Below, piece after piece: positions 1-12,346 of a DNA stretch of 64,000 nucleotides; positions within the stretch are counted from its first letter, which is position 1; each line of letters begins with the position of its first letter. Below the pieces are notes generated by a model, which saw only the letters and a list, made by a program, of their open reading frames with translations, was not told the origin of the DNA and did not search any database. The stretch is from Candidatus Obscuribacteraceae bacterium (lineage in GTDB: Bacteria > Cyanobacteriota > Vampirovibrionia > Obscuribacterales > Obscuribacteraceae). Position numbers and translations under genes: made by a program. The stretch spans positions 416,001 to 480,000 of the forward strand of contig JBGAHS010000008.1 in the NCBI GenBank assembly GCA_044226015.1. The letters run 5' to 3'.

Positions 1-2
1 TT

Positions 3-1979
3 AACCACTACGTCGGTCAAGAAAAATTGGTGCCACAAGCATCATGGGCACCAATAGCATTCGGCGGTGACTGGGTGGGTCCACCCAGACTGCAAAACGC
101 CCCTTCATTTCACTACGTTCATTCAGACCAGTGGCGCTATGACCGCTCGTTCAACGAAATGTGCAACGTAGCAGACCCCGGGCACACCATGGCATCAGGT
201 CACACCATTGACAAACAGATAATGGCAGTCCGAAATGGTTGGTTGCCTTGTTATCCACAATTCAATCGAAGCAATTTTGACCTCATTGATGAATCGATCA
301 AAAATGGAGCATCGTCTGATGAGCAGATCATCAACTATACAGTTGATGCATTGAAATCACGCAAACTGAAATTCTCCATGGAAGATCCAAACAATCCGGA
401 GAGCTTCCCCAGACTCTGGTACATCTGGCGTGGCAACGCAATTATGTCATCAGCGAAAGGGCATGAGTACTTTCTCAAGCACTACCTTGGCACGCACAAC
501 AATCTTGTGTCAGAAGAACAGGCACAAGAATTTGTCAAGGAAGTGGTCTGGCACGACAAAGTCGAGTTGGGCAAGATGGACTTGATTGTGGACCTCAACT
601 TCCGCATGGATACATCGGCTCTCTATTCAGACATCGTTCTGCCGGCGGCAACGTATTATGAAAAGCATGATCTTAACTCGACAGACATGCACACGTTCAT
701 ACATCCATTGCAACCGGCTGTGCCACCATGTTGGGAGTCTAAGTCTGATTGGGATATTTTCAAAGCAATATCGCAAAAGACCTCCGAGTTGGCTAAAACT
801 CACATGCCAGAGCCGCGAAAAGATCTTATGGTATCGCCTTTGATGCACGATACACCGGCCGAGTTGGCTCAGCCACACATAAAAGACTGGATGAAAGGCG
901 AGTGCGAGCCCATTCCAGGAAAAACAATGCCCGGCATGAAAGTTGTGACGCGAGACTACACCAAGATTTATGACAAGTTCATTTCGCTTGGTCCAAATTT
1001 CCGCAACAATGGACTTGCCGTACATGGAACACACTATGATGTTGACGATCTTTATGACCAGTATTTGAAAGACCACCCGATTGAAGAATGGGGCGGCAAC
1101 AAATATCCATCATTGAAAGACGCATACAATGCTTGCAACATTATCTTGCATTTCGCCCCTGAAACAAATGGCGAGCTTGCATGTCGTGCCTATCAATCAG
1201 AATCGATAAAAACTGGCATTGATCACAGTCACCTGGCTGAAGATACGCGAAGCGTTCGAATGACCTTCGATGACTTAAAAGCGCAACCGCGCCGTGTTTT
1301 AACCAGCCCCTACTGGACTGGAATTACAGCCAATGGACGCACGTATTCTGCATACTGCCAGAACGTCGAAGAGCTGATTCCGTGGCGCACATTGACTGGA
1401 AGACAAGAAATATACCTTGACCACGAAGCGTACATCGCATACGGCGAAAATCTTCCGACATTCAAACCTCGAGCAGATGTTCATGCATGTTATGACTTGC
1501 AGAACTCGCCGAAAGAAAGTGCGTCGCTGACTCTCAACTATTTGACGCCACATGGAAAATGGCATATTCACTCAACATTCGGTGACACGCTGCGAATGAA
1601 AACGCTTTCTCGTGGCATCGAACCAATCTGGCTCAACGATAAAGATGCAGACATGGTCGGAATCGAAGATAACGACTGGGTCGAAATCTACAATGACCAC
1701 GGAGTTGTTTGCACACGAGCATGTGTTAGCGCACGCATTCCCCGCGGTATCAGCATGATTTATCACTCGCCAGAAAGAACCGCCACAGTTCCAAAATCAA
1801 AACAGCGAGGCGGGAAACGAGCAGGTGGACATAACAGTCTCACTCGCGCTCGACTAAAACCACTGTTTATGATTGGTGGTTATGCTCAATTCACATATGC
1901 GTTCAATTACTGGGGTCCTACTGGAATAAACAGAGACACCTTCGTGATTGTCAAAAAAATGGACAACGTGCAATGGTAG
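3..1979 (+). CDS. narG: Respiratory nitrate reductase alpha subunit, C-terminal part (5'-truncated by the window)
   Basis: Frame is open from nt 3 (NHYVGQEKL, the NarG HYVGQEK motif). Also has [13 protein letters not shown]-like [56 protein letters not shown] and [12 protein letters not shown]. Followed by narH/J/I. Confidence 0.95.
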
Positions 1980-1995: not shown

Positions 1996-3498
1996 ATGGA
2001 TATCCGAGCCCAGGTTTCAATGGTTTTTCACCTCGATAAATGTATCGGGTGTCACACCTGCAGCATCGCCTGCAAGAATGTGTGGACAGACCGCGCTGGT
2101 GCCGAATACATGTGGTGGAACAATGTTGAAACCAAACCAGGTACCGGTTTCCCAACACTATGGGAAGACCAGGAGCATTTCAAAGGTGGCTGGAAAATTG
2201 TAGGCAATAATGGAAAACGCAAGCTTGAATTGCGCTCGCAAGGCAAGCTAGACGCATTCTTGAAACTATTCTACAACCCAAATCAGCCCGGTCTTGATGA
2301 TTACTATGAACCATGGACATACAAATATAGTGATCTGTTTGATGCACCAGAAGGAGACGATCAGCCAACCGCCATTCCGATCTCACAGATCACCGGCGAG
2401 CCCGTCGATATCGTAGCTGGACCCAACTGGGATGACGACCTCTCAGGCTCAACCCTTTACGCAGAGAACGACATAAACCTCGATGCACTTTCAGACGAAG
2501 AGCGAGAACAATTGTTCGAAATTGAGCGCGTCTCGATGATGTATCTTCCGAGAATTTGCAATCACTGTGCAAACCCAAGTTGCGTAGCATCATGTCCTTC
2601 CGGTGCGCTATACAAGCGCGGCGAAGATGGCATCGTTCTTGTCAATCAAGAAATTTGCAAAGGCTGGAGAGCATGTGTAAGCGCCTGCCCTTATAAGAAG
2701 ATCTACTATAACTGGAAAACAGGCAAGTCAGAGAAATGCATTCTCTGTTATCCAAAATTAGAGACAGGTCAAATACCAAATTGCTTCCAGTCTTGTGTCG
2801 GTAGAATTCGTTATCTCGGTGTCTTGCTCTATGATGCTGACCAGATCGCCTCGTCAATGTCAGTTCCAGACGAAGCTCTCGTTGAATCACAAAGAAGTGT
2901 ATTTTGCGACCCTTACGATCCAAAAATCATCAAGCTTGCACGCGCTAACGGCATCAGCGAAGAATTCATCGAAGCTGCACAGAAATCGCCGGTCTACAAA
3001 TATGTAATGAAGTGGAAACTTGCACTTCCTCTGCATATTGAGTATAGAACGATGCCCATGCTCTTCTATGTGCCACCACTTCTTCCAGTAATGGGCAAGC
3101 TTGAGAACGGGCACTACGGCAATGTCATAGATGGTTTCTTCACGAGCCTGGAAAAATCTAGACTGCCAATTAAATACCTGGCGAAGTTATTTAGCGCAGG
3201 CAACACCGAACTTGTTGATGCTGTCATGAAGAAGCTAATGGCTGTGCGCTATTACAAACGCTCTCTCGACATGGGCGATGTTGATGTGGTTTCGATTAAT
3301 CGCATGATGAGAGAAGCCAACCTCACTCCGAAAGAAGCAGAAGAAATTTATGCTCTTACAGCACTTCCGACAGTTGATGAACGCTTTGTTCTGCCACCAC
3401 TTCAGAGGGAAGAGGCTGTCAACGGAACCTGTAATCCAGAAATATGCAAAGGCTCTTGCGGGCTAGGCATGAGCGTAACACCGGAGAGAGGACCATGA
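1996..3498 (+). CDS. narH: Respiratory nitrate reductase beta subunit (4 Fe-S clusters)
   Basis: ATG at 1996 with GGAGGA RBS at 1983-1988. N-terminus MDIRAQVSMVFHLDKCIGCHTCSIACK. Cys motifs CNHCANPSCVASCP, CKGWRACVSACP (3Fe-4S type) and CILCYP..CFQSC. Confidence 0.97.
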   Translation: MDIRAQVSMVFHLDKCIGCHTCSIACKNVWTDRAGAEYMWWNNVETKPGTGFPTLWEDQEHFKGGWKIVGNNGKRKLELRSQGKLDAFLKLFYNPNQPGLDDYYEPWTYKYSDLFDAPEGDDQPTAIPISQITGEPVDIVAGPNWDDDLSGSTLYAENDINLDALSDEEREQLFEIERVSMMYLPRICNHCANPSCVASCPSGALYKRGEDGIVLVNQEICKGWRACVSACPYKKIYYNWKTGKSEKCILCYPKLETGQIPNCFQSCVGRIRYLGVLLYDADQIASSMSVPDEALVESQRSVFCDPYDPKIIKLARANGISEEFIEAAQKSPVYKYVMKWKLALPLHIEYRTMPMLFYVPPLLPVMGKLENGHYGNVIDGFFTSLEKSRLPIKYLAKLFSAGNTELVDAVMKKLMAVRYYKRSLDMGDVDVVSINRMMREANLTPKEAEEIYALTALPTVDERFVLPPLQREEAVNGTCNPEICKGSCGLGMSVTPERGP

Positions 3499-4037
3499 GC
3501 ACCAAAATCAAATTGAGCCTGTCTGAAAAAATGCGTGCACTGTCAGCGGTGCTGGAATACCCTCGTGAAGACTTCATTGTCCAGCTCGATGCAGCAGCCG
3601 AAGCTGTACACGACAACCAGCAAGCCAGCCTACTTTTGTCAGAATTCAGGTCAGCGATAAATAAACTTAAGCCGCATGAATTGGAAGAGCTTTACACAAG
3701 AACTTTCGACCTGGCGCCAATTTGCATTCCATATGTGAGCAGTCATATTTACGGGGATGAGAACTTCGAAAGAGGCGCTCTCATGAGCGGCTTGCAGCAA
3801 CAATATGAAGATTGCAAGTTCAGCACCAATGGTGAACTGCCCGACCATGTGGCAATTATCTTGCGCTTTGCTCCGAATTTCTCAGAAGAAGAGTTGCAAG
3901 ACCTTATGGAATTCTGTCTGATTCAGGCTTTGCAGCGTATGCACGAAGCGCTGAAAGAAGCGGACAATCCCTATCAACACATTCTACAAACAGTACTACA
4001 AATCACTGAGTCAGAACGGCGAGGAAAAATACTATGA
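3495..4037 (+). CDS. narJ: Nitrate reductase molybdenum-cofactor assembly chaperone
   Basis: ATGA overlap with the narH stop. Motifs LEYP, LEELYTRTFD, ERGALM and GELPDH. Confidence 0.93.
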   Translation: MSTKIKLSLSEKMRALSAVLEYPREDFIVQLDAAAEAVHDNQQASLLLSEFRSAINKLKPHELEELYTRTFDLAPICIPYVSSHIYGDENFERGALMSGLQQQYEDCKFSTNGELPDHVAIILRFAPNFSEEELQDLMEFCLIQALQRMHEALKEADNPYQHILQTVLQITESERRGKIL

Positions 4038-5350
4038 CGGACACAATGTTCTTTATTGCATTGCCTTATCTGTCAATTTTTGTTTGTGTAGTTGGCAGCA
4101 TTCTGAGAATGCGAAGCTTACCGATGACGTACTCCTCACTTTCGTCGCAGTTCCTTGAAAGCAAGGCTCTGGTTTGGGGCTCAGTTCCCTGGCATATTGG
4201 TATCATAGGAATTGTGCTGGCACACTTTGTTGCATTCCTTTGCCCAGGGTTCTGGCAAATGTTGGTGGCACACGCGGTCGTAATGAAATCGATTGAGGCA
4301 ATTGGACTAACGTGCGCAATATGCTGTTTTGTCGGTCTCATCGTACTAGCAGTGCGTCGCATAAGTTCAGATCGCGTTCAAGCAGTAACAAGCCCGGTCG
4401 ATCTGCTAGTACTGCTTTTGCTTACGGTGCAAGTGGTGCTCGGCATCGCAGTTGCACTCTTACACCGATGGGGCTCAGCCTGGGCTGTTGGAACGGCAGT
4501 TCCCTACCTCTGGAGCTTGTGCCTCTTGCACCCGGACGTTAGCTATATTGCAGACCTGCCCTTGCTTGTAAAAGCACACATAGTGTTTGCCTGGCTGTTG
4601 ATCTTCCTGGTGCCATTCTCTCGCCTGATCCACATGTTCGCAGTGCCGCTGCAATACATTACGAGACCACCACAAAATGTTATCTGGAATAATTCCCGAC
4701 GCTCTGAAGCTGCAGCTGAGCAGTTTACAACGGAAGAGGCTAGACGAGATTTTCTCAAAGGTGGGGTTGGTATCACAGCAGGAACATTGCTTCTAACAGC
4801 TGGGGCTCTAGATAAAATGTTCGCGTTCTTCTTTGGTCCTCGCTTGAGTAAAACTGAGGAAGAAACGCTGATGGCAGAAAAAATCAAGCGCCTTGGCTCA
4901 GACACAGAGCAGCGTCGTCTTGAGTTAGAGAGACAGAGCAGTAAGTTCATTCTAGTTGCAGCAATGAGCGAACTGAGTAAGTCCGAAGGCAAATACTTCA
5001 TTGATTACGCGATGAACCCGGCATTAGCCTTTGCTGGCGAAGACGGAATGCCCATACTCATTTCAGCAAAATGTACTCACCTTGGTTGCACAGTCGGAAA
5101 TCAATTGAATAAGGAAGGCAAAATTCTCTGCCCATGCCATGTTTCCTTCTTCGACATTAAGACTGGCGAACCCAATGCAGATGCCCCAGCGAAAACACCG
5201 CTACCATTCTTGTGCTGGTCGATTATGGACAAGATTGGAAACATGGTCGCCAGCCGTGATGAGAAGGGTCAAATTAAAGGTGATACCAGCGCTGATGCAA
5301 TCAAAGACTGCAATCTCTATGTTTGTAAAAGCGAAGAGGTGAAGGCATGA
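4034..5350 (+). CDS. narI: Fusion protein: NarI (diheme cytochrome b gamma subunit) + twin-arginine TM anchor + Rieske [2Fe-2S] domain
   Basis: Residues ~1-220 are NarI (SSLSSQFLE, PWHIGIIGIVLAHF, KAHIVF..PFSRLIHMF; four heme His). RRDFLK at aa 237-242 is followed by a hydrophobic helix. Rieske boxes CTHLGC (nt 5072-5089) and CPCHVSFFD (nt 5129-5155). One uninterrupted frame with ATGA overlaps at both ends. Confidence 0.92.
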   Translation: MTDTMFFIALPYLSIFVCVVGSILRMRSLPMTYSSLSSQFLESKALVWGSVPWHIGIIGIVLAHFVAFLCPGFWQMLVAHAVVMKSIEAIGLTCAICCFVGLIVLAVRRISSDRVQAVTSPVDLLVLLLLTVQVVLGIAVALLHRWGSAWAVGTAVPYLWSLCLLHPDVSYIADLPLLVKAHIVFAWLLIFLVPFSRLIHMFAVPLQYITRPPQNVIWNNSRRSEAAAEQFTTEEARRDFLKGGVGITAGTLLLTAGALDKMFAFFFGPRLSKTEEETLMAEKIKRLGSDTEQRRLELERQSSKFILVAAMSELSKSEGKYFIDYAMNPALAFAGEDGMPILISAKCTHLGCTVGNQLNKEGKILCPCHVSFFDIKTGEPNADAPAKTPLPFLCWSIMDKIGNMVASRDEKGQIKGDTSADAIKDCNLYVCKSEEVKA

Positions 5351-6453
5351 ACTCAAGTTCCTCAAACCAAATCAGTAAATTTGGCGAGTTTCTCGCTTCA
5401 AGATTTCCAGTAGAAAAAATGGACTTCCACCACATGGTGGCGCAAAAAGAAGTACCTGTCCACAAAATGACATGGGGCTACTACACTGGTGGATTGACAC
5501 TGTTCTTTCTGGTAATTCAGGTAATTACAGGGCTCTTGCTTTTGTTTTACTACCAGCCTACGACCGCTTTCGCGCATCTGTCTGTTGAATACATAACGAA
5601 GCACGTTGCCGGTGGTGCGCTTATAAGAAATATGCATACATGGTCTGCCTCAGCCATGATATTTTTTGCAATGGTGCATTTGCTCACAGCTTTTGCGATG
5701 AAATCTTTTGAGAAACCCAGAGAGATAACATGGATAGTTGGGGTTCTCTTACTCTTCATAACATTCGTTTTCGGCTTTACAGGTTACCTCCTTCCATGGA
5801 ATCAGATCGCGGTAAATGCGACCAAGGTTGGACTGCAGTCAGTGGAAGAAGTGGGCAATTATCTACCGGGCGTGGTGTCTCAATTACCACATATTTTCCG
5901 AGAAACTTTCCAGGGTGAAGCGAGTGTTGGACAGTCAACTCTGGGACGATTCTATGCCATGCACGTAGTGCTACTTCCGCTCGCGCTCTTCGGCTTGTTG
6001 GGCATACATCTGCTTTCTGTACAGCTGCACGGAATGAGCAAAGGCGTCGATGAACCAGGCAAGAGAACCGAAAGATTCTTTCCATTTTTCGTCTTCAAAG
6101 ACCTTTCATTGTGGGCAGCCATCTTCTTAATTCTGCTCACCCTTTCATGGTGCATTCCATTTGACTCATTCCTGCCGTTCCCACTTCTAGAGCCTTACAA
6201 TGCACTGGGCTCAACCCCACAGGGTATCAAACCAGAATGGTATTTCTTCTTCCTGTATTACCCTCTGGAAATGCTGCCCTTCTGGTTGATATTGCTTCTC
6301 ACAAATGCCGCTGTAATCGTGCTTCTTCTCGCTCCGTGGATCTTCAAGGGCACAAGCAGAACAACATTACGCTGGATAACAGTTGCCGCAAGCGCCTACT
6401 TAGTGATCATGACGCTATTCGGCGAGCAAATTTATCACCTCGTTAAACATTGA
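5347..6453 (+). CDS. Cytochrome b subunit of a Rieske/cytochrome b (bc-type) complex, unsplit
   Basis: QVITGLLLLFYYQP; RNMHTWSASAMIFFAMVH (His97/His111); WIVGV; FTGYLLPWNQ; RFYAMHVVLLP..GIH (His206/His221); IKPEWYF Qo motif at aa 296. Confidence 0.95.
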   Translation: MNSSSSNQISKFGEFLASRFPVEKMDFHHMVAQKEVPVHKMTWGYYTGGLTLFFLVIQVITGLLLLFYYQPTTAFAHLSVEYITKHVAGGALIRNMHTWSASAMIFFAMVHLLTAFAMKSFEKPREITWIVGVLLLFITFVFGFTGYLLPWNQIAVNATKVGLQSVEEVGNYLPGVVSQLPHIFRETFQGEASVGQSTLGRFYAMHVVLLPLALFGLLGIHLLSVQLHGMSKGVDEPGKRTERFFPFFVFKDLSLWAAIFLILLTLSWCIPFDSFLPFPLLEPYNALGSTPQGIKPEWYFFFLYYPLEMLPFWLILLLTNAAVIVLLLAPWIFKGTSRTTLRWITVAASAYLVIMTLFGEQIYHLVKH

Positions 6454-6466
6454 GCGGAGCCAGGAA

Positions 6467-7099
6467 ATGAAAACGCGTAGACTTAGCCAAATACAAAAAC
6501 TCCAGGTTTATGGCGCACTGGCCACAGTAGCAGTTCTGGCATTCGCAGCAAAAGTAAATGCATATCCTGAGTTCCAACAATTCGTTGAAACTCACTCGGG
6601 AAAATCAGTTAACTGCGCGCTATGCCACCAGAATGGAAATGGTCCATCAGGAAAAGAAGAGGGACAAGTAGGGTCGCTCAATGAAAAAGAACTTGCTGCA
6701 TTGAATTCAGCAAGAGGCGCCATAGAACCCGGAATGTTGAAGGCGGACAGCCCTATCCTTAACAAGTTTGGCAACAGCATAATGAGGTCGATTGGCAAGA
6801 AGAAATTTCTTGAGCTGCGAGAAAAGCCTGAACAGCTTGCTGAAGTTCTAGATAAAAAAAGCGATATCGATGAAGACGGAATTCCGGACGGACAAGAATA
6901 TCTAGACGGAACTGACCCAAGCAACAAAAATCATGGTGATCCGTTGAAGCTCTTTGCAGTGAACATCGACAGATACAAATCTCACCTGATTCTTGCGGGA
7001 CTGGCTGTCGTTTTTCTTGATTGGGGATTCGCCCACTTAATCATGGGATTCTATCGCAAGTCGCAAGCGAAAAAGCTAAAGCGCGGCGAAACGACATGA
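6467..7099 (+). CDS. Membrane-anchored monoheme c-type cytochrome with an acidic Ca-binding-like motif
   Basis: Signal-like N-terminus ending VNA-YPEF, single CALCH (nt 6614-6628), DIDEDGIPDGQEYLDGTDP, and a C-terminal TM helix with basic tail. GGAG RBS; starts 13 nt after cytochrome b. Confidence 0.8.
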   Translation: MKTRRLSQIQKLQVYGALATVAVLAFAAKVNAYPEFQQFVETHSGKSVNCALCHQNGNGPSGKEEGQVGSLNEKELAALNSARGAIEPGMLKADSPILNKFGNSIMRSIGKKKFLELREKPEQLAEVLDKKSDIDEDGIPDGQEYLDGTDPSNKNHGDPLKLFAVNIDRYKSHLILAGLAVVFLDWGFAHLIMGFYRKSQAKKLKRGETT

Positions 7100-7171: not shown

Positions 7172-7633
7172 TTAGTGACGTGCGCCAGGACGTCCACCGG
7201 GTTTGCTATCAGCTAATGGAATGCTTGAACAAAGTGGTGCCTTTGACTCCTGTACAAGTTCTGCCAGCGTTGAACTGGCAAAGGCAAGCTCAACTGCCGC
7301 CGTTGCTTCAGAAAGCCGTTTATGCAGTGGACACAAATTCATTCCGTGCGTTTCAAGTCCTAGAGGGCAAACGTCGATGCGTTTAATTGGGTCAACCGCG
7401 TTCACGATGTCGAGAACCGTTATTTCTTCTACTGGTCGTGACAAAACGAAGCCACCACCGATTCCTCTCTGCGAAATAACCAAATGTGAACGACCCAATT
7501 GCTGGAGGATTTTGCTCAAGTAGTGAACGGATACTTTGGTTGTTTCTGCTATTTGTTCAGCTGTAGCAGCCGAGCCGCGCATGGCTAGGAACACCATGGC
7601 TCTCAATGCATACTCAGCAGTTTGCGATATCAT
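7172..7633 (-). CDS. Rrf2-family transcriptional regulator
   Basis: MISQTAEYALRAMVFLA, YLSKILQQL, SQRGIGGGFVL, ITVLDIVNAVDP, and C-terminal cysteines CPLG..LCPLH..PLC. Confidence 0.95.
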   Translation of the reverse strand: MISQTAEYALRAMVFLAMRGSAATAEQIAETTKVSVHYLSKILQQLGRSHLVISQRGIGGGFVLSRPVEEITVLDIVNAVDPIKRIDVCPLGLETHGMNLCPLHKRLSEATAAVELAFASSTLAELVQESKAPLCSSIPLADSKPGGRPGARH

Positions 7634-7718
7634 CTTTTGCCTCTTTCAACACTTTCAATACATAAATAACAGATCCTTACCGTTTGCACAATTGACCAAG
7701 AGACTGAAAAGTTAATAG

Positions 7719-8795
7719 TCAGTAAGGCTGAACACTGTCTTGAAAAAGGCACAAATTGTCTTGAGAAAGATAGTCTCCTGATTCGGCAAAAGCACGAGCA
7801 CGCGAACCACCGCAAATCGCCTTGTAGCGGCATGTTCCGCACTTACCACGCAAAAGCGAAGGGTTCCGCAAATCTTTGAATAATTGCGATTCACGATATA
7901 TTTCCACAAGGCTTTGATCCCTCAAATTGCCTGCTGGGAGAGGGAGAAAGCCACTTGGACAAATATCTCCAGTATGAGAGATGAACAAAGTTCCTTTGCC
8001 ATCATTTACAGACTGATAGGAACGTAGTGCACCAAGTCGCATCTGGGGGCTCAGATCATCGAGATTATGATTAGATTGAGCCGAAAAAATGGTCTCTAGT
8101 AGAACTCTGCGAAACTGTGGAGCCGCAGTAGCTTTAACATCAAAGCTGGATGATACCGATAGTTCAGCCATCTTTTTCAAAACTTCTTCCGCTTGAGTGG
8201 CAGTGATTTGCATCTCTTGATGCGCTCTACCAGTAGGCACAACAAAGAACAAGCTCCACAAAACGGCAGCATTGAGTTCACTCACAAAGAAATGCATGTT
8301 GTCAAAATAATCAATGTTGTGTTTGCTTATGCTTGTGTTTATTTGGACTGGAATACCAAATTCTTTAGCCCACGAAATTATGTCCAAAGTTCGTGCAAAA
8401 CTTCCATCAATACGCCTGAACGCATCATGCAACTGAGCCGTGTGCCCGTCCATACTGATTGCGAGACGCTCGATTCCAGCCTCTGCCAACCTCAAGACAA
8501 CCTGTTCGGTAACTTTCGGCGTCGCACTTGGAGTGATGGCAACTTTGAAATTACGGCGCTTACATTCTTGAATTATTTCAAACAGATCTGGACGCTCAAG
8601 AGGATCGCCCCCAGTCAAAATTATTAGCGGATTATCAAATTCTTGAAGTTGATTCAACACCTGCTCTATCTCTTCGGTGCTCAATTCCTGAGCGGCCCGC
8701 CGCCTCTGTGCGCGCGCACGGCAGTGCTGACAAGCCAATCCGCAAGCCCTGGTCAATTCCCACAGAACTATGTAAGGGGATTGATCAAAACTCAT
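7719..8795 (-). CDS. Radical SAM/SPASM protein (AhbD/NirJ-like heme-related family)
   Basis: WELTRACGLACQHCRA (CxxxCxxC), LTGGDPL, SPASM-like GDICPSGFL and CGTCRYKAICGGSRARA..C. Start set at the ATG of MSFDQSP; the upstream TTG at 8891 is possible. Confidence 0.88.
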   Translation of the reverse strand: MSFDQSPYIVLWELTRACGLACQHCRARAQRRRAAQELSTEEIEQVLNQLQEFDNPLIILTGGDPLERPDLFEIIQECKRRNFKVAITPSATPKVTEQVVLRLAEAGIERLAISMDGHTAQLHDAFRRIDGSFARTLDIISWAKEFGIPVQINTSISKHNIDYFDNMHFFVSELNAAVLWSLFFVVPTGRAHQEMQITATQAEEVLKKMAELSVSSSFDVKATAAPQFRRVLLETIFSAQSNHNLDDLSPQMRLGALRSYQSVNDGKGTLFISHTGDICPSGFLPLPAGNLRDQSLVEIYRESQLFKDLRNPSLLRGKCGTCRYKAICGGSRARAFAESGDYLSQDNLCLFQDSVQPY

Positions 8796-8980
8796 TTTCT
8801 TGAACGAATTATTTGAATTTGTGCTCACGTGAAGCCTCTTTGCACGGTTTGCTGCACGGTAACCATTATGTCTCAGGCTCGAGATCAGCAACCTCAGTCC
8901 AAAGATGGATACCTGTACGAAATGATAATTTCAGTCGAAAGACTACTCCCTAAGAACGATGAATCCATCTTACGGATAAC

Positions 8981-10837: not shown

Positions 10838-12346
10838 ATGTCCGACGATGCAAAGGCAGTCTCAGTTCTGACTGTAAACACGCTCTCCTTTACGGTTTGC
10901 TTTGCTGCCTGGATGATGTATGGTGTCTTGATTACATACCTGGTTGATAATGGGCTTGTGCACTTCGACAAAGCGCAGCTCGGTTGGCTGATCGGTACGC
11001 CAGTTCTGACAGGCTCAATAATACGCTTGCCAGTCGGAATCTGGACTGACAGATATGGCGGGCGAATAGTATTTGCTTTAGTCATGTTGGTTTCAGCAGC
11101 ATCAATGTACTGCGTGAGTTTCTGCAACACCTTTACAGAATTCCTGATTGCTGCTCTTGGTTTTGGGCTTTCAGGCACAGCGTTTGCTGTGGGAATTGCT
11201 TACACTTCAGTCTGGTTTCCAAAAGAGAAACAGGGCACCGTGCTTGGTATCTTCGGCGCAGGAAACGCAGGCGCAGCCATTACAAGTTTCGGAGCGCCGC
11301 ACTTGCTCGCCTACCTTACTGACCACAACCACAATCTTGAAGGATGGCGCAACCTGCCAAAAGTTTATGCGGCAGCACTTGTGATAATGACTGTTATTTT
11401 CTGGCTATTCTCTTTTCCTAAGAAAGTTGACCACGGTAAGGGTTTCACTCTTGCCCAACAGCTAGCACCATTGAAGCATGTGCGCGTATGGCGATTTGGA
11501 CTCTACTACTTTTTCGTGTTCGGAGGATTCGTTGCACTATCTCAGTGGCTGATTCCATACTATCTAAATGTATATGCAATGAGTCTGGCTACGGCTGGCT
11601 TTTACGCCGCATGCTTCAGCTTGCCTTCAGGCGTAATCAGAGCATTTGGAGGATGGCTCTCTGACATGTGGGGTGCCCGCTCAGTCATGTATTGGGTGCT
11701 TTGTTCTTGCCTGATATGCTGCGCATTACTTTGCGTTCCGCGAATGGACATCATGTCTCCAGGAGAAGGAATTATGGCGCTAAAAGGCGGCACAGTCAGC
11801 TCGGTGACCGGCGCCTTAATAGAAGTAGGAGAACAAAAATACAAACTGCGTGAAAAACCAGCGCAAGATGTTCTGACGCAGGCGTCGCAAAACGAAAACA
11901 TGATCGTCTGGCCTACATTCACCTTCTGGCAAGAGCCTGCGGTTAAAGTCGGCGACACGATAGTGAAGAAACAACTGCTTGCCAGAGGCATCACTCACAT
12001 CTTTTTCCAGGCAAATGTCTGGATATTCACAGCCCTGGTACTGGTAGTCGGAGTTGCGACCGGCATAGGAAAAGCAGCCGTCTACAAGCATATTCCTGAT
12101 TACTTTCCATCCGATGTCGGTGTAGTTGGTGGCATCGTCGGCGTCATCGGGGGTCTTGGTGGCTGGGTCGGTCCAATTCTCTTCGGCATGATGCTTAATG
12201 CCACGGGAATCTGGACAACATGCTGGCTCTTCTTCTCAGTAATTATCGTAATGTGTTTAGTCTGGATGCACTGGACTATAACGCACATGATGAATGAGAG
12301 AGCTCCAGAAGTAGCACGCGCAATTGAGCTTGAAACTACGCCATAG
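10838..12346 (+). CDS. narK: NarK1-type nitrate MFS transporter with a ~90-aa inserted soluble domain
   Basis: NTLSFTVCFAAW, PVLTGSIIRLP, FAVGIAYTSVWFPKEKQGTVLGIFGAGNAG, VWRFGLYYFFVFGGFVAL and GIGKAAVYKHIPDYFP. Insertion at about nt 11738-12020. Confidence 0.92.
   Translation: MSDDAKAVSVLTVNTLSFTVCFAAWMMYGVLITYLVDNGLVHFDKAQLGWLIGTPVLTGSIIRLPVGIWTDRYGGRIVFALVMLVSAASMYCVSFCNTFTEFLIAALGFGLSGTAFAVGIAYTSVWFPKEKQGTVLGIFGAGNAGAAITSFGAPHLLAYLTDHNHNLEGWRNLPKVYAAALVIMTVIFWLFSFPKKVDHGKGFTLAQQLAPLKHVRVWRFGLYYFFVFGGFVALSQWLIPYYLNVYAMSLATAGFYAACFSLPSGVIRAFGGWLSDMWGARSVMYWVLCSCLICCALLCVPRMDIMSPGEGIMALKGGTVSSVTGALIEVGEQKYKLREKPAQDVLTQASQNENMIVWPTFTFWQEPAVKVGDTIVKKQLLARGITHIFFQANVWIFTALVLVVGVATGIGKAAVYKHIPDYFPSDVGVVGGIVGVIGGLGGWVGPILFGMMLNATGIWTTCWLFFSVIIVMCLVWMHWTITHMMNERAPEVARAIELETTP

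Follow-up and report, generated by a model that had tools for sequence, protein, structure and literature searches.

A NarI–Rieske fusion with an internal twin-arginine motif: a candidate dual Sec/Tat-targeted protein in a nitrate reductase operon of Vampirovibrionia

How would a single chain that joins a NarI-type membrane protein to a Rieske iron-sulfur domain be assembled, and what might such a union do in respiration? The question is raised by a gene in a 64,000-nucleotide stretch of DNA (hereinafter the window) from a Candidatus Obscuribacteraceae bacterium, which the original prediction had read as a NarI-Rieske fusion with a twin-arginine (RR) motif in its interior. The parts of the gene are:

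4034..5350, forward strand: narI::Rieske fusion gene, 438 aa; TIGR00351 narI, 131 bits (cut-off 105.55)
4040..4687, forward strand: NarI domain, aa 3-218; Pfam PF02665, E 9.6e-59
4742..4759, forward strand: twin-arginine motif RRDFLK, aa 237-242; R237 in 117/120, R238 in 120/120 and F240 in 118/120 rows
4760..4843, forward strand: weakly hydrophobic helix 6 (aa 243-259), followed by its end (aa 260-270), which holds basic residues and an FFFGP turn
4850..4939, forward strand: predicted charged helix of 30 residues (aa 273-302) between the anchor and the Rieske head
4949..5200, forward strand: Rieske [2Fe-2S] domain, aa 306-389; Pfam PF00355, E 4.8e-8

The fusion gene and its domains

The gene at 4034-5350 is a real NarI::Rieske fusion, as had been proposed: a single 438-aa translation runs through it with zero internal stops, and both Pfam domains are found in this uninterrupted frame. 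Among the 120 top-scoring of 530 database matches, 119 likewise contain both domains, at 50-100% identity. The junction, for which a check at the level of reads had been advised, is spanned by two contigs, which are assembled sequences rather than raw reads and no proof of transcription. One, from run X2 (of another study than the possible source run X1), covers 3900-5500 with 5 substitutions and 0 gaps; the other, of 155 nt and derived from a relative's RNA library (X6), covers 4649-4803 with 0 gaps and shows synonymous changes in the codons of R238 and F240. An assembly or frameshift artefact is ruled out by the two-domain matches, the gapless contigs and the existence of 33 fused ORFs.

The NarI domain comprises five hydrophobic helices, aligns to E. 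coli NarI (1q16_C) and has a fold match in 3ir5_C (E 2.4e-12), with all four haem b ligands (H54, H64, H182, H200) retained in 120/120 aligned rows. Judged by score, helices, histidines and operon, it can be assigned to the gamma subunits of respiratory nitrate reductases. In the Rieske domain, the ligands C347, H349, C366 and H369 and the cysteine pair C352/C368 are found in 119/120 rows, the exception being a C-terminally truncated fragment. This type of pair forms a disulfide in bc-type Rieske proteins. The second box retains its Ser and has Phe at the Tyr position, a combination that presumably confers a middling potential, a point of doubt for electron delivery to the distal haem of NarI. 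An AlphaFold model of the fusion has a pTM of 0.48, too low to place the Rieske head with respect to NarI.

The internal twin-arginine motif and its origin

The motif RRDFLK indeed lies deep inside the protein, ahead of a hydrophobic helix: 17 uncharged residues (aa 243-259) follow it, and a single predicted helix spans aa 228-267. Conservation of the RR in homologs, which the original prediction had required, is borne out by the counts given above, with R237 replaced by Lys in 3/120 rows. The linker before it drifts (the top residue at aa 224-234 is shared by 18-72 of 120 rows), and the spacing from H200 to R237 is 36-39 residues in 120/120 rows. All six Arg codons are used at R237 and again at R238 among the 33 fused ORFs, a diversity pointing to purifying selection on the RR motif. 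Among the genome's 4856 ORFs that reach 200 aa, 5 match the pattern RRxF[LIVM][KR] followed by at least 13 uncharged residues; four of these matches fall within the first 34 residues and that in NarI::Rieske is the sole internal one. A looser pattern yields 28 internal and 20 N-terminal matches, both patterns having been composed after the motif was known. A chance motif is ruled out by the row conservation, codon use and pattern counts.

Helix 6 is weakly hydrophobic, its maximal Kyte-Doolittle value over 19 residues being 1.36 here and 1.63 on average over 120 rows, as against 2.05-2.62 for helices 1-5. Within the 15 residues after it, at least one K/R is present in 120/120 rows and at least two in 115/120. 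The original prediction had argued that the topology of NarI would place the RR on the right side of the membrane. The alternating charge of the loops agrees with this: K/R averages are 3.5, 3.0 and 7.5 in loops 1, 3 and 5 as compared to 0.6 and 1.1 in loops 2 and 4. From this bias and from homology to NarI, we infer that the motif faces the cytoplasm.

The relatives of the Rieske part indicate where the motif came from. Nine stand-alone Rieske genes (L033-L040 and L047), each preceding the same cytochrome b, share the RR, the hydrophobic stretch and the long helix, with the RR at residues 3-25. The fusion motif aligns with this N-terminal RR anchor, the charged helix at aa 273-302 has its counterpart in the same alignment, and the HMM for cyanobacterial PetC aligns from aa 234 of the fusion. 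The same N-terminal motif in the nine stand-alone relatives thus suggests that the internal RR is the signal-anchor of the Rieske protein retained after fusion. In a second fusion, cytochrome c::Rieske (P0126 and P0282; locus L052), the RR is likewise kept after a single membrane helix. In a tree of the Rieske module (60 rows), fused and stand-alone rows are intermixed, requiring 6 label changes, 2 of them forced by strong branches; because of this intermixing, neither the number of fusions nor their direction (fusion or fission) is settled.

Could the arginines instead be a mere positive-inside signal or a structural contact, with the Rieske domain remaining in the cytoplasm or being exported without Tat? 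Arg pairs are common at the cytoplasmic ends of helices, R108-R109 of the fusion itself (120/120) being an example, and the Tat-signal HMM TIGR01409 gives 14.3 bits on the motif, below its cut-off of 16.7. However, Lys substitutes at the first Arg alone, F stands at +2 in 118 rows, the stand-alone relatives carry this motif at the N-terminus, and the disulfide Cys pair and the partner with a PEWY motif indicate the periplasm. We therefore find this reading scarcely credible, and regard the internal RR helix as a predicted, likely uncleaved, Tat signal-anchor.

Dual targeting by Sec and Tat

With the conserved internal RR helix as a likely signal-anchor, it is highly probable that NarI is inserted by Sec and that the Rieske domain, once folded, is exported by Tat, so that its head comes to lie in the periplasm. 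By analogy with known families, the five NarI helices would be inserted N-out/C-in via Sec, which would let go of helix 6 owing to its weak hydrophobicity and the basic residues after it. The [2Fe-2S] cluster would be loaded in the cytoplasm, TatC would bind the RRxFL, and Tat would carry the folded head to the periplasm, the side of the PEWY motif and of both c cytochromes of the operon. The features for release from Sec described by Tooke 2017 (PMC5449189), low hydrophobicity of the last helix and basic residues downstream, are both seen in helix 6 (120 rows). The genome encodes TatC and one TatA/B-family protein. TatC was found in 20/20 fusion-bearing genomes tested and in 11/14 control genomes; being so common, its presence discriminates little.

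Dual Sec/Tat targeting is itself an already known class. The available text of PMC5449189 and PMC13673990 names, as Class IV Tat substrates, the actinobacterial Rieske protein Sco2149/QcrA, Sco3746 (haem b/MoCo), the polyferredoxin Q1NSB0 and the polytopic YkuE, and NarI::Rieske is not among the dual-targeted families named there. The family was not found in the literature searched, and the fusion goes without mention in the available text of PMC5600118, PMC5317091 and PMC4122944. As far as those Class IV descriptions go, NarI::Rieske shares with them the Sec-type helices, a conserved RR immediately ahead of a weak last helix with basic residues after it, and a cofactor domain; moreover, it is apparently a fusion of a Sec protein to a neighbouring Tat substrate, an origin proposed for Sco3746 and Q1NSB0. 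It differs from the members described there in having five helices before the RR (six in total, N-out), where they have 2 or 4 (N-in) or, in YkuE, 3 (N-out), and in that its Sec part is a full dihaem NarI, which would also anchor NarGH.

A lasting covalent link would be lost if signal peptidase cut after helix 6 once Tat had acted, or if an internal start gave rise to a separate Rieske protein. The sequence A-G-A at aa 256-258 is a possible signal-peptidase site; however, A-x-A occurs there in just 14/120 rows, and the Tat anchors of Rieske proteins are normally uncleaved (PMC7317946). As to an internal start, the original prediction had seen no Met between the HMF at the end of NarI and the RR; while there is indeed no ATG after M201, it overlooked a GTG in the same frame, at V204 (nt 4643-4645), before which no obvious ribosome-binding site is seen. 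A start-like codon is present at this position in 16/33 fused ORFs, but none is kept between NarI and the RR in more than half of the 33, and no stop codon lies in that stretch in any of them. Either way of losing the covalent link is very improbable. Taken as a whole explanation, dual targeting of NarI::Rieske, together with a likely tie of Nar to a Rieske/cytochrome b complex, appears quite probable.

A nitrate reductase operon with a Rieske/cytochrome b module

The operon was underplayed in the original prediction: through the fusion, a nitrate reductase facing the cytoplasm is likely tied to a full Rieske/cytochrome b module. The other genes of the operon are:

G000:C12:413440-414342: dihaem cytochrome c gene, before narG
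1..1979, forward strand: 3' part of narG; TIGR01580 narG, 1536 bits; best PDB match E. coli NarG
1996..3498, forward strand: narH; TIGR01660, 638 bits
3495..4037, forward strand: narJ chaperone; Pfam PF02613; TIGR00684, 55.3 bits, slightly below the cut-off of 59.35
5347..6453, forward strand: cytochrome b, with b6 and subunit IV in one chain (Pfam), 368 aa
6467..7099, forward strand: monohaem cytochrome c with signal peptide, CxxCH, DxDxDG motif and C-terminal membrane helix
9081-10745 and 10838-12346, forward strand: two NarK-type nitrate/nitrite transporters; MFS_1, with NarK/NarU models as best NCBIfam matches, below cut-offs

The narG gene starts upstream of the window (G000:C12:414347) and encodes 1210 aa without a Tat signal, and the narJ stop overlaps the start of narI::Rieske. 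The order dihaem cytochrome c, narGHJ, narI::Rieske, cytochrome b (PEWY), monohaem cytochrome c and narK is conserved in 20 loci of several phyla, wherever the contig extends far enough. Within the window's class, 23/201 genomes have the operon; records from at least four further phyla contain it too, and the sequencing runs matching it come from activated sludge and bioreactors.

The cytochrome b has haem histidines 97/111/206/221 in 43/44 rows and the quinol-oxidation motif PEWY in 42/44, the remaining two being split or truncated. By their Cys2His2 ligands, disulfide pair, four haem histidines and Qo motif, the Rieske domain and cytochrome b can be classed as bc-type. A cyanobacterial cytochrome b6f is rejected: the 368-aa cytochrome b is unsplit and has no Cys ahead of the GG motif where the haem ci cysteine was sought, and there is no cytochrome f match. 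The PetC HMM gives 32 bits on the Rieske part against a cut-off of 250. The monohaem cytochrome c, its CxxCH invariant in 29 aligned rows, follows cytochrome b in 18/20 fused loci, the other two ending at contig ends, and is the presumed c1/f equivalent of the module. We take its predicted mature start and nearby CxxCH to resemble those of cytochrome f and Cyc2. Identity with cytochrome f was rejected, as neither Pfam nor NCBIfam nor PDB sequences yielded a match. The product falls in one unnamed atlas cluster; structure searches gave a best Foldseek E of 4.6 and a best VIA-align Z of 3.0, the latter for the C-terminal helix alone. These missing matches do not show a new fold.

With E. coli NarGHI the system shares the five helices, four haem histidines, fold, narG/narH/narJ/narK operon and a NarG without Tat signal; it goes beyond it in the 220-residue C-terminal extension of NarI with its Tat anchor and Rieske domain, and in the added cytochrome b and two c cytochromes. 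Another difference lies at the E. coli quinol-site Lys, K86, whose position is hydrophobic in the fusion: with E. coli NarI as the reference for comparison, every one of 120 rows has V, I, L, F, A, T or N at the corresponding position 83. The invariant E88 was rejected as a mark of the fusion, as it is also present in the unfused NarI of L041-L043. None of 21 NarG ORFs, a few of which are called from upstream of the true start, has RRx[FL] within its first 60 residues, and the window's NarG lacks it as well; by this missing Tat signal, an outward-facing NarG of the pNar or haloarchaeal type is ruled out.

For the function of the operon, Q-cycle-coupled cytoplasmic nitrate reduction is the likeliest reading, held at about even confidence. 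Menaquinol would be oxidised at the PEWY site, with one electron recycled via the b haems in a Q-cycle and the second passing from the Rieske cluster through the monohaem c, dihaem c and NarI haems to NarH and NarG. Nitrate would be reduced in the cytoplasm, and the yield per nitrate would rise from 2 protons to 4, the figure calculated for Streptomyces Nar1 (PMC7931247). In Streptomyces coelicolor, Nar1 is proposed to draw on the bc complex, with a dihaem cytochrome c handing the electrons to NarI haem bD, likewise with 4 H+/nitrate (PMC7931247). The present system resembles it in having a cytoplasmic Nar, a bc complex as its proposed electron source and a dihaem cytochrome c between the two, but Nar1 and the bcc-aa3 supercomplex are encoded by separate genes and linked by genetic dependence and co-purification, whereas here one chain and one operon join the two. 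The haloarchaeal nar cluster has Rieske and cytochrome b genes and a proposed Q-cycle coupling (PMC3509893); its NarGH faces outward and its listed cluster lacks NarI, in contrast to a NarG without Tat signal alongside NarI and NarK here. More tentatively, and at somewhat less than an even chance, we posit a genetically hard-wired nitrate reductase-cytochrome bc supercomplex with a six-helix, N-out Sec/Tat link, the NarI haems as the inward electron wire in place of a quinol oxidase, and a cytochrome c of no recognised fold in place of c1/f.

Coupling is favoured by the fixed operon order in the 20 loci and by the surroundings of the two further Rieske/cytochrome b sets in the genome, both of which adjoin a terminal-oxidase-type gene. 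It is rather unlikely that the two halves work side by side, NarI (still dual Sec/Tat-targeted) oxidising quinol itself, as it does in E. coli, while electrons from the bc module and dihaem c go to different acceptors in the periplasm, the fusion merely setting stoichiometry and co-expression. Such a division of labor accords with the retention of all four haem ligands in NarI and with the occurrence of the Rieske/cytochrome b/cytochrome c module without nar genes (nine loci and L052), which also weighs against the electron route, as does a dihaem c with narGHJI but no bc module in L041. The available text on Thermus thermophilus narCGHJIKT (PMC7694296) describes a membrane-anchored periplasmic dihaem cytochrome c as the product of the first gene, and two NarK-type transporters, as here; it mentions no Rieske or cytochrome b, and our dihaem c is likened to NarC by layout, not sequence. 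In Thermus, NarC is proposed to lead electrons away from Nar, an outward branching that fits the side-by-side arrangement and counts against the proposed route. On the other hand, Lys never occupies the K86 position, the bc-Nar linkage recurs in an unfused layout (L042 and L043, where a different Rieske/cytochrome b pair, its cytochrome b fused to a dihaem c, lies upstream of narGHJI), and the window's genome (92% complete) has no nirK above cut-off and a short and weak cytochrome d1 match.

It is improbable that the system runs in reverse, as a cytoplasm-facing nitrite oxidoreductase (NXR) passing nitrite electrons via NarI to the c cytochromes and bc module. A Melainabacteria enzyme encoded before petB and narK was classed by phylogeny as a cytoplasmic NXR (PMC6349859), and a similar NarC-NarI layout is noted for Nitrobacter in the available text of PMC7694296. 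Yet NarG passes the narG equivalog, the 92% complete genome has no match to the RuBisCO large subunit, and nitrate respiration is predicted for Obscuribacter (PMC4040986).

If dual targeting holds, NarI::Rieske would add a fifth family to a class known from four and a new topology with five haem-binding, N-out Sec helices; since its unfused parents exist, it also illustrates how dual Sec/Tat proteins arise. The usual description of cytoplasmic Nar in bacteria has it bypass the bc complex (PMC3509893), with Streptomyces Nar1 a proposed exception on the basis of dependence and co-purification (PMC7931247). Here, two normally separate respiratory enzymes are likely tied into one unit, and with the covalent NarI-Rieske link within one operon, Q-cycle-coupled cytoplasmic nitrate reduction could be put to a direct test in a laboratory host. 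If the supercomplex is real, nitrate respiration would yield twice as many protons in Vampirovibrionia, Verrucomicrobia and other uncultured lineages.

The fused gene and its twin-arginine motif

The narI::Rieske gene is a single open reading frame, within which domain searches delimit two parts:

4034-5350, + strand: narI::Rieske ORF, single frame, 438 codons
aa 3-218, + strand: NarI domain
aa 306-389, + strand: Rieske domain

As originally predicted, a twin-arginine (RR) motif, RRDFLK, lies inside this ORF (aa 237-242; nt 4742-4759), and 17 uncharged residues directly follow it. The accompanying claim that no in-frame Met lies between the NarI end and the motif holds, there being no ATG between M201 and the motif; an in-frame GTG does occur at codon 204, with no obvious ribosome-binding site upstream. 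A contig from run X2, whose study is not that of the possible source run X1, spans 3900-5500 with 5 substitutions and no gaps, and a short contig from a relative's RNA library also crosses the junction, with the R238 and F240 codons changed synonymously; both are assemblies rather than raw reads and no demonstration of transcription.

In an alignment of 120 rows (the query and 119 matches, self-match removed), R238 and G257 are invariant and R237 is present in 117 rows (Lys in the other three). F240 occurs in 118, only L, I, V or M is found at position 241, and the last haem ligand precedes the RR by 36-39 residues in every row. Over aa 224-234, no more than 18-72 of the 120 rows share the commonest residue. 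In 33 fused ORFs taken from DNA loci, one duplicated pair among them, R237 and R238 each use all six Arg codons and F240 both Phe codons. To judge from these sequences, the RR motif is under selection. The Tat consensus is given as S-R-R-x-F-L-K (PMC7317946). A strict Tat-like pattern, defined after the fact, matches 5 of the 4856 long ORFs genome-wide and falls internally only in the fusion; it is this count that carries the argument, because a looser pattern has 28 internal matches in the genome. The Tat-signal HMM scores 14.3 bits on the motif, below its 16.7 cut-off.

The protein search scored 7995 candidates and yielded 530 matches. Both domains are present in 119 of the best 120 of these, the remaining one being a 313-aa fragment, and the named organisms among these best 120 are Obscuribacterales, Melainabacteria or an unclassified genome of the cyanobacterial phylum; the window itself probably derives from this group. 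Full-length matches occur in 23 of 201 genomes of the window's class (own genome included), divided between the window's family (18/48) and one other (5/12). A scan of species genomes recovered 20 fused loci labelled Verrucomicrobia, Alphaproteobacteria, Calditrichaeota and Eisenbacteria, the rest being unnamed, and cluster names add Bacteroidota and Spirochaetota. The Proteobacteria label of L001 (JAJPGY010000005.1), one of these 20 loci, is probably wrong, since G100, a genome from the window's own family, has an identical Rieske module.

Origin of the motif and proposed dual targeting

Nine loci encode a stand-alone Rieske protein matching only the C-terminal half of the fusion, with an RR at residue 3-25, hydrophobic residues behind it and then the long helix also seen in the fusion. 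The same cytochrome b gene follows in all nine and the same cytochrome c gene occurs in eight, the ninth being at a contig end; no nar genes occur in the flanks examined. As these relatives share the RR anchor and the alignment with the cyanobacterial PetC model begins at aa 234 of the fusion, the internal motif is an ordinary N-terminal Rieske signal-anchor, intact within the fusion; the tree fixes no count of fusions or fissions. A second fusion, found in only two proteins (P0126 and P0282), has a monohaem cytochrome c in front, connected to the same RR-Rieske module by a Pro/Ala linker and a single membrane helix. The gene for P0282 (L052:8001-9407) lies upstream of the cytochrome b and c genes described above, in a locus without nar matches, and its product is another candidate for dual Sec/Tat targeting.

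Between anchor and Rieske head lies a 30-residue charged helix (window 4850-4939), at a position taken in bc-type Rieske proteins by a short flexible hinge. The helix is characteristic of this Rieske subfamily, in fused and stand-alone members alike, and may immobilise the head. Elsewhere in the genome, the anchor motif encoded by the Rieske gene of a bd-like oxidase set (G000:C4:147697-148236, L050) reads RG instead of RR.

Dual Sec/Tat proteins already form a recognised class with four named families (PMC13673990; PMC5449189), in which, according to Tooke 2017, a weakly hydrophobic last helix and basic residues downstream release the chain from Sec (PMC5449189). The original prediction was that Sec inserts NarI and Tat then exports the Rieske head, leaving the sixth helix uncleaved. 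The hydropathy maximum of this helix averages 1.63, versus 2.05-2.62 for helices 1-5, and K/R follows it in 120/120 rows. The nine stand-alone anchors have higher values (1.73-2.39), although six further stand-alone database proteins give 1.56-2.16. Lower hydropathy in the fusion is what selection for Sec escape upon fusion would predict, but, the rows being related, is only suggestive. The K/R charge bias gives NarI an N-out, C-in topology, which places the RR in the cytoplasm, as the dual route would need. In the structure model (mean pLDDT 84), aa 228-267 form a single helix and the parts match the fold of E. coli NarI and that of the b6f Rieske protein; with a pTM of 0.48, it does not place the head. 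The genome encodes TatC and one TatA/B-family gene, and TatC is present in each of 20 selected genomes that carry the fusion; this is necessary for the Tat model but weak support, TatC being common. The A-G-A beyond the hydrophobic residues is a possible peptidase site, but A-x-A occurs there in just 14/120 rows, and Rieske anchors are normally uncleaved (PMC7317946). Overall, the observation behind the original prediction is confirmed, and its interpretation is supported at the sequence level.

The Nar-bc operon

The operon of the window's genome starts, upstream of the window, with dihaem cytochrome c and continues with narG, narH, narJ, narI::Rieske, cytochrome b and monohaem cytochrome c; from this last gene on, the layout is:

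6467-7099: monohaem cytochrome c
7172-8891, - strand: opposite-strand insert before narK, rrf2 and a TIGR04053 radical SAM/SPASM gene
beyond this insert: two narK-type genes

Among the 20 fused loci, narG lies upstream in 19, cytochrome b downstream in 19, monohaem cytochrome c is present in 18 and dihaem cytochrome c comes first in 15, each absence falling at a contig end. NarK-type matches occur in 16; two loci are cut short, and the examined DNA of L001 and L011 has no NarK-type gene. An rrf2 gene also adjoins the operon in many related loci. NarG passes the narG model and has no Tat signal. The cytochrome b has the four haem His in 43/44 rows and PEWY in 42/44, and is devoid of the haem ci cysteine, while the Rieske domain retains its four ligands and the Cys pair of the disulfide described in PMC7908018; these are the requirements of a working outward-facing quinol-oxidation site. 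At L017:8067-9415 the cytochrome b gene lies in two frames, reflecting a frameshift or assembly error.

The monohaem cytochrome c has a confident structure model (pLDDT 95) and no family, sequence or fold match. As no Met or His is conserved as sixth haem ligand in 29 aligned rows, its haem may be ligated by the free N-terminus after signal cleavage. In cytochrome f, the N-terminus ligates the haem.

Proposed electron flow and energetics

We favour, at about an even chance, a coupling in series, whereby quinol oxidation drives cytoplasmic NarG. Quinol would be oxidised at the PEWY site of cytochrome b, and the high-potential electron would reach NarG by way of the Rieske centre, both c cytochromes and the haems of NarI. 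The same electron scheme has been proposed for Streptomyces Nar1, with 4 protons per nitrate instead of 2 (PMC7931247). Two MqnA/MqnD-family proteins encoded in the genome point to menaquinone as the quinone.

These proteins and three further observations support the series coupling. The position of E. coli K86 is never Lys in the NarI alignment. In two loci (L042:1994-10846 and L043:11-8741), genes for an unfused Rieske protein and for a cytochrome b with a fused-on dihaem cytochrome c stand immediately ahead of an unfused narGHJI, with narK following. This Rieske/cytochrome b pair is a different one (38-40% identical) and represents another route by which a bc module is linked to cytoplasmic Nar. 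Finally, the genome's two other Rieske/cytochrome b sets adjoin oxidase-type genes, namely a bd-like and a haem-copper oxidase gene, respectively. In the latter region (G000:C5:64495-72989, partly L051), the oxidase gene is clustered with two genes for dihaem c, one Rieske gene and a pair of cytochrome b-like genes that both lack PEWY. Separately, G000:C1:305393-308188 holds a 931-aa ORF of the haem-copper oxidase family that contains three CxxCH motifs and adjoins genes for a small cytochrome c and a Tat-signal protein.

The series coupling is weakened in that the Rieske/cytochrome b/monohaem cytochrome c module also occurs without Nar, the dihaem cytochrome c is found in L041 with no such module, and Thermus NarC has been proposed to channel electrons outward (PMC7694296). 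Nar and the bc module might instead operate side by side, which we consider distinctly less probable, the genome having no convincing nirS or nirK. That the complex oxidises nitrite is improbable: the 92% complete genome has no RuBisCO match.

No description of a NarI-Rieske fusion was found in the full-text literature searched, to which work on Obscuribacterales respiration or multiple Rieske/cytochrome b complexes may add; the supplementary files of Tooke 2017 (PMC5449189) gave no match by term, and its full external candidate lists may include NarI-Rieske. What comes nearest is a single-sentence mention of a nitrate/nitrite oxidoreductase of Melainabacteria whose gene precedes petB and narK (PMC6349859), and nitrate respiration has been predicted in Obscuribacter, with Rieske unmentioned in the text searched (PMC4040986). 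The predicted targeting is of an already known kind; the Nar-bc operon around the fusion is apparently undescribed, and its energetics are testable.
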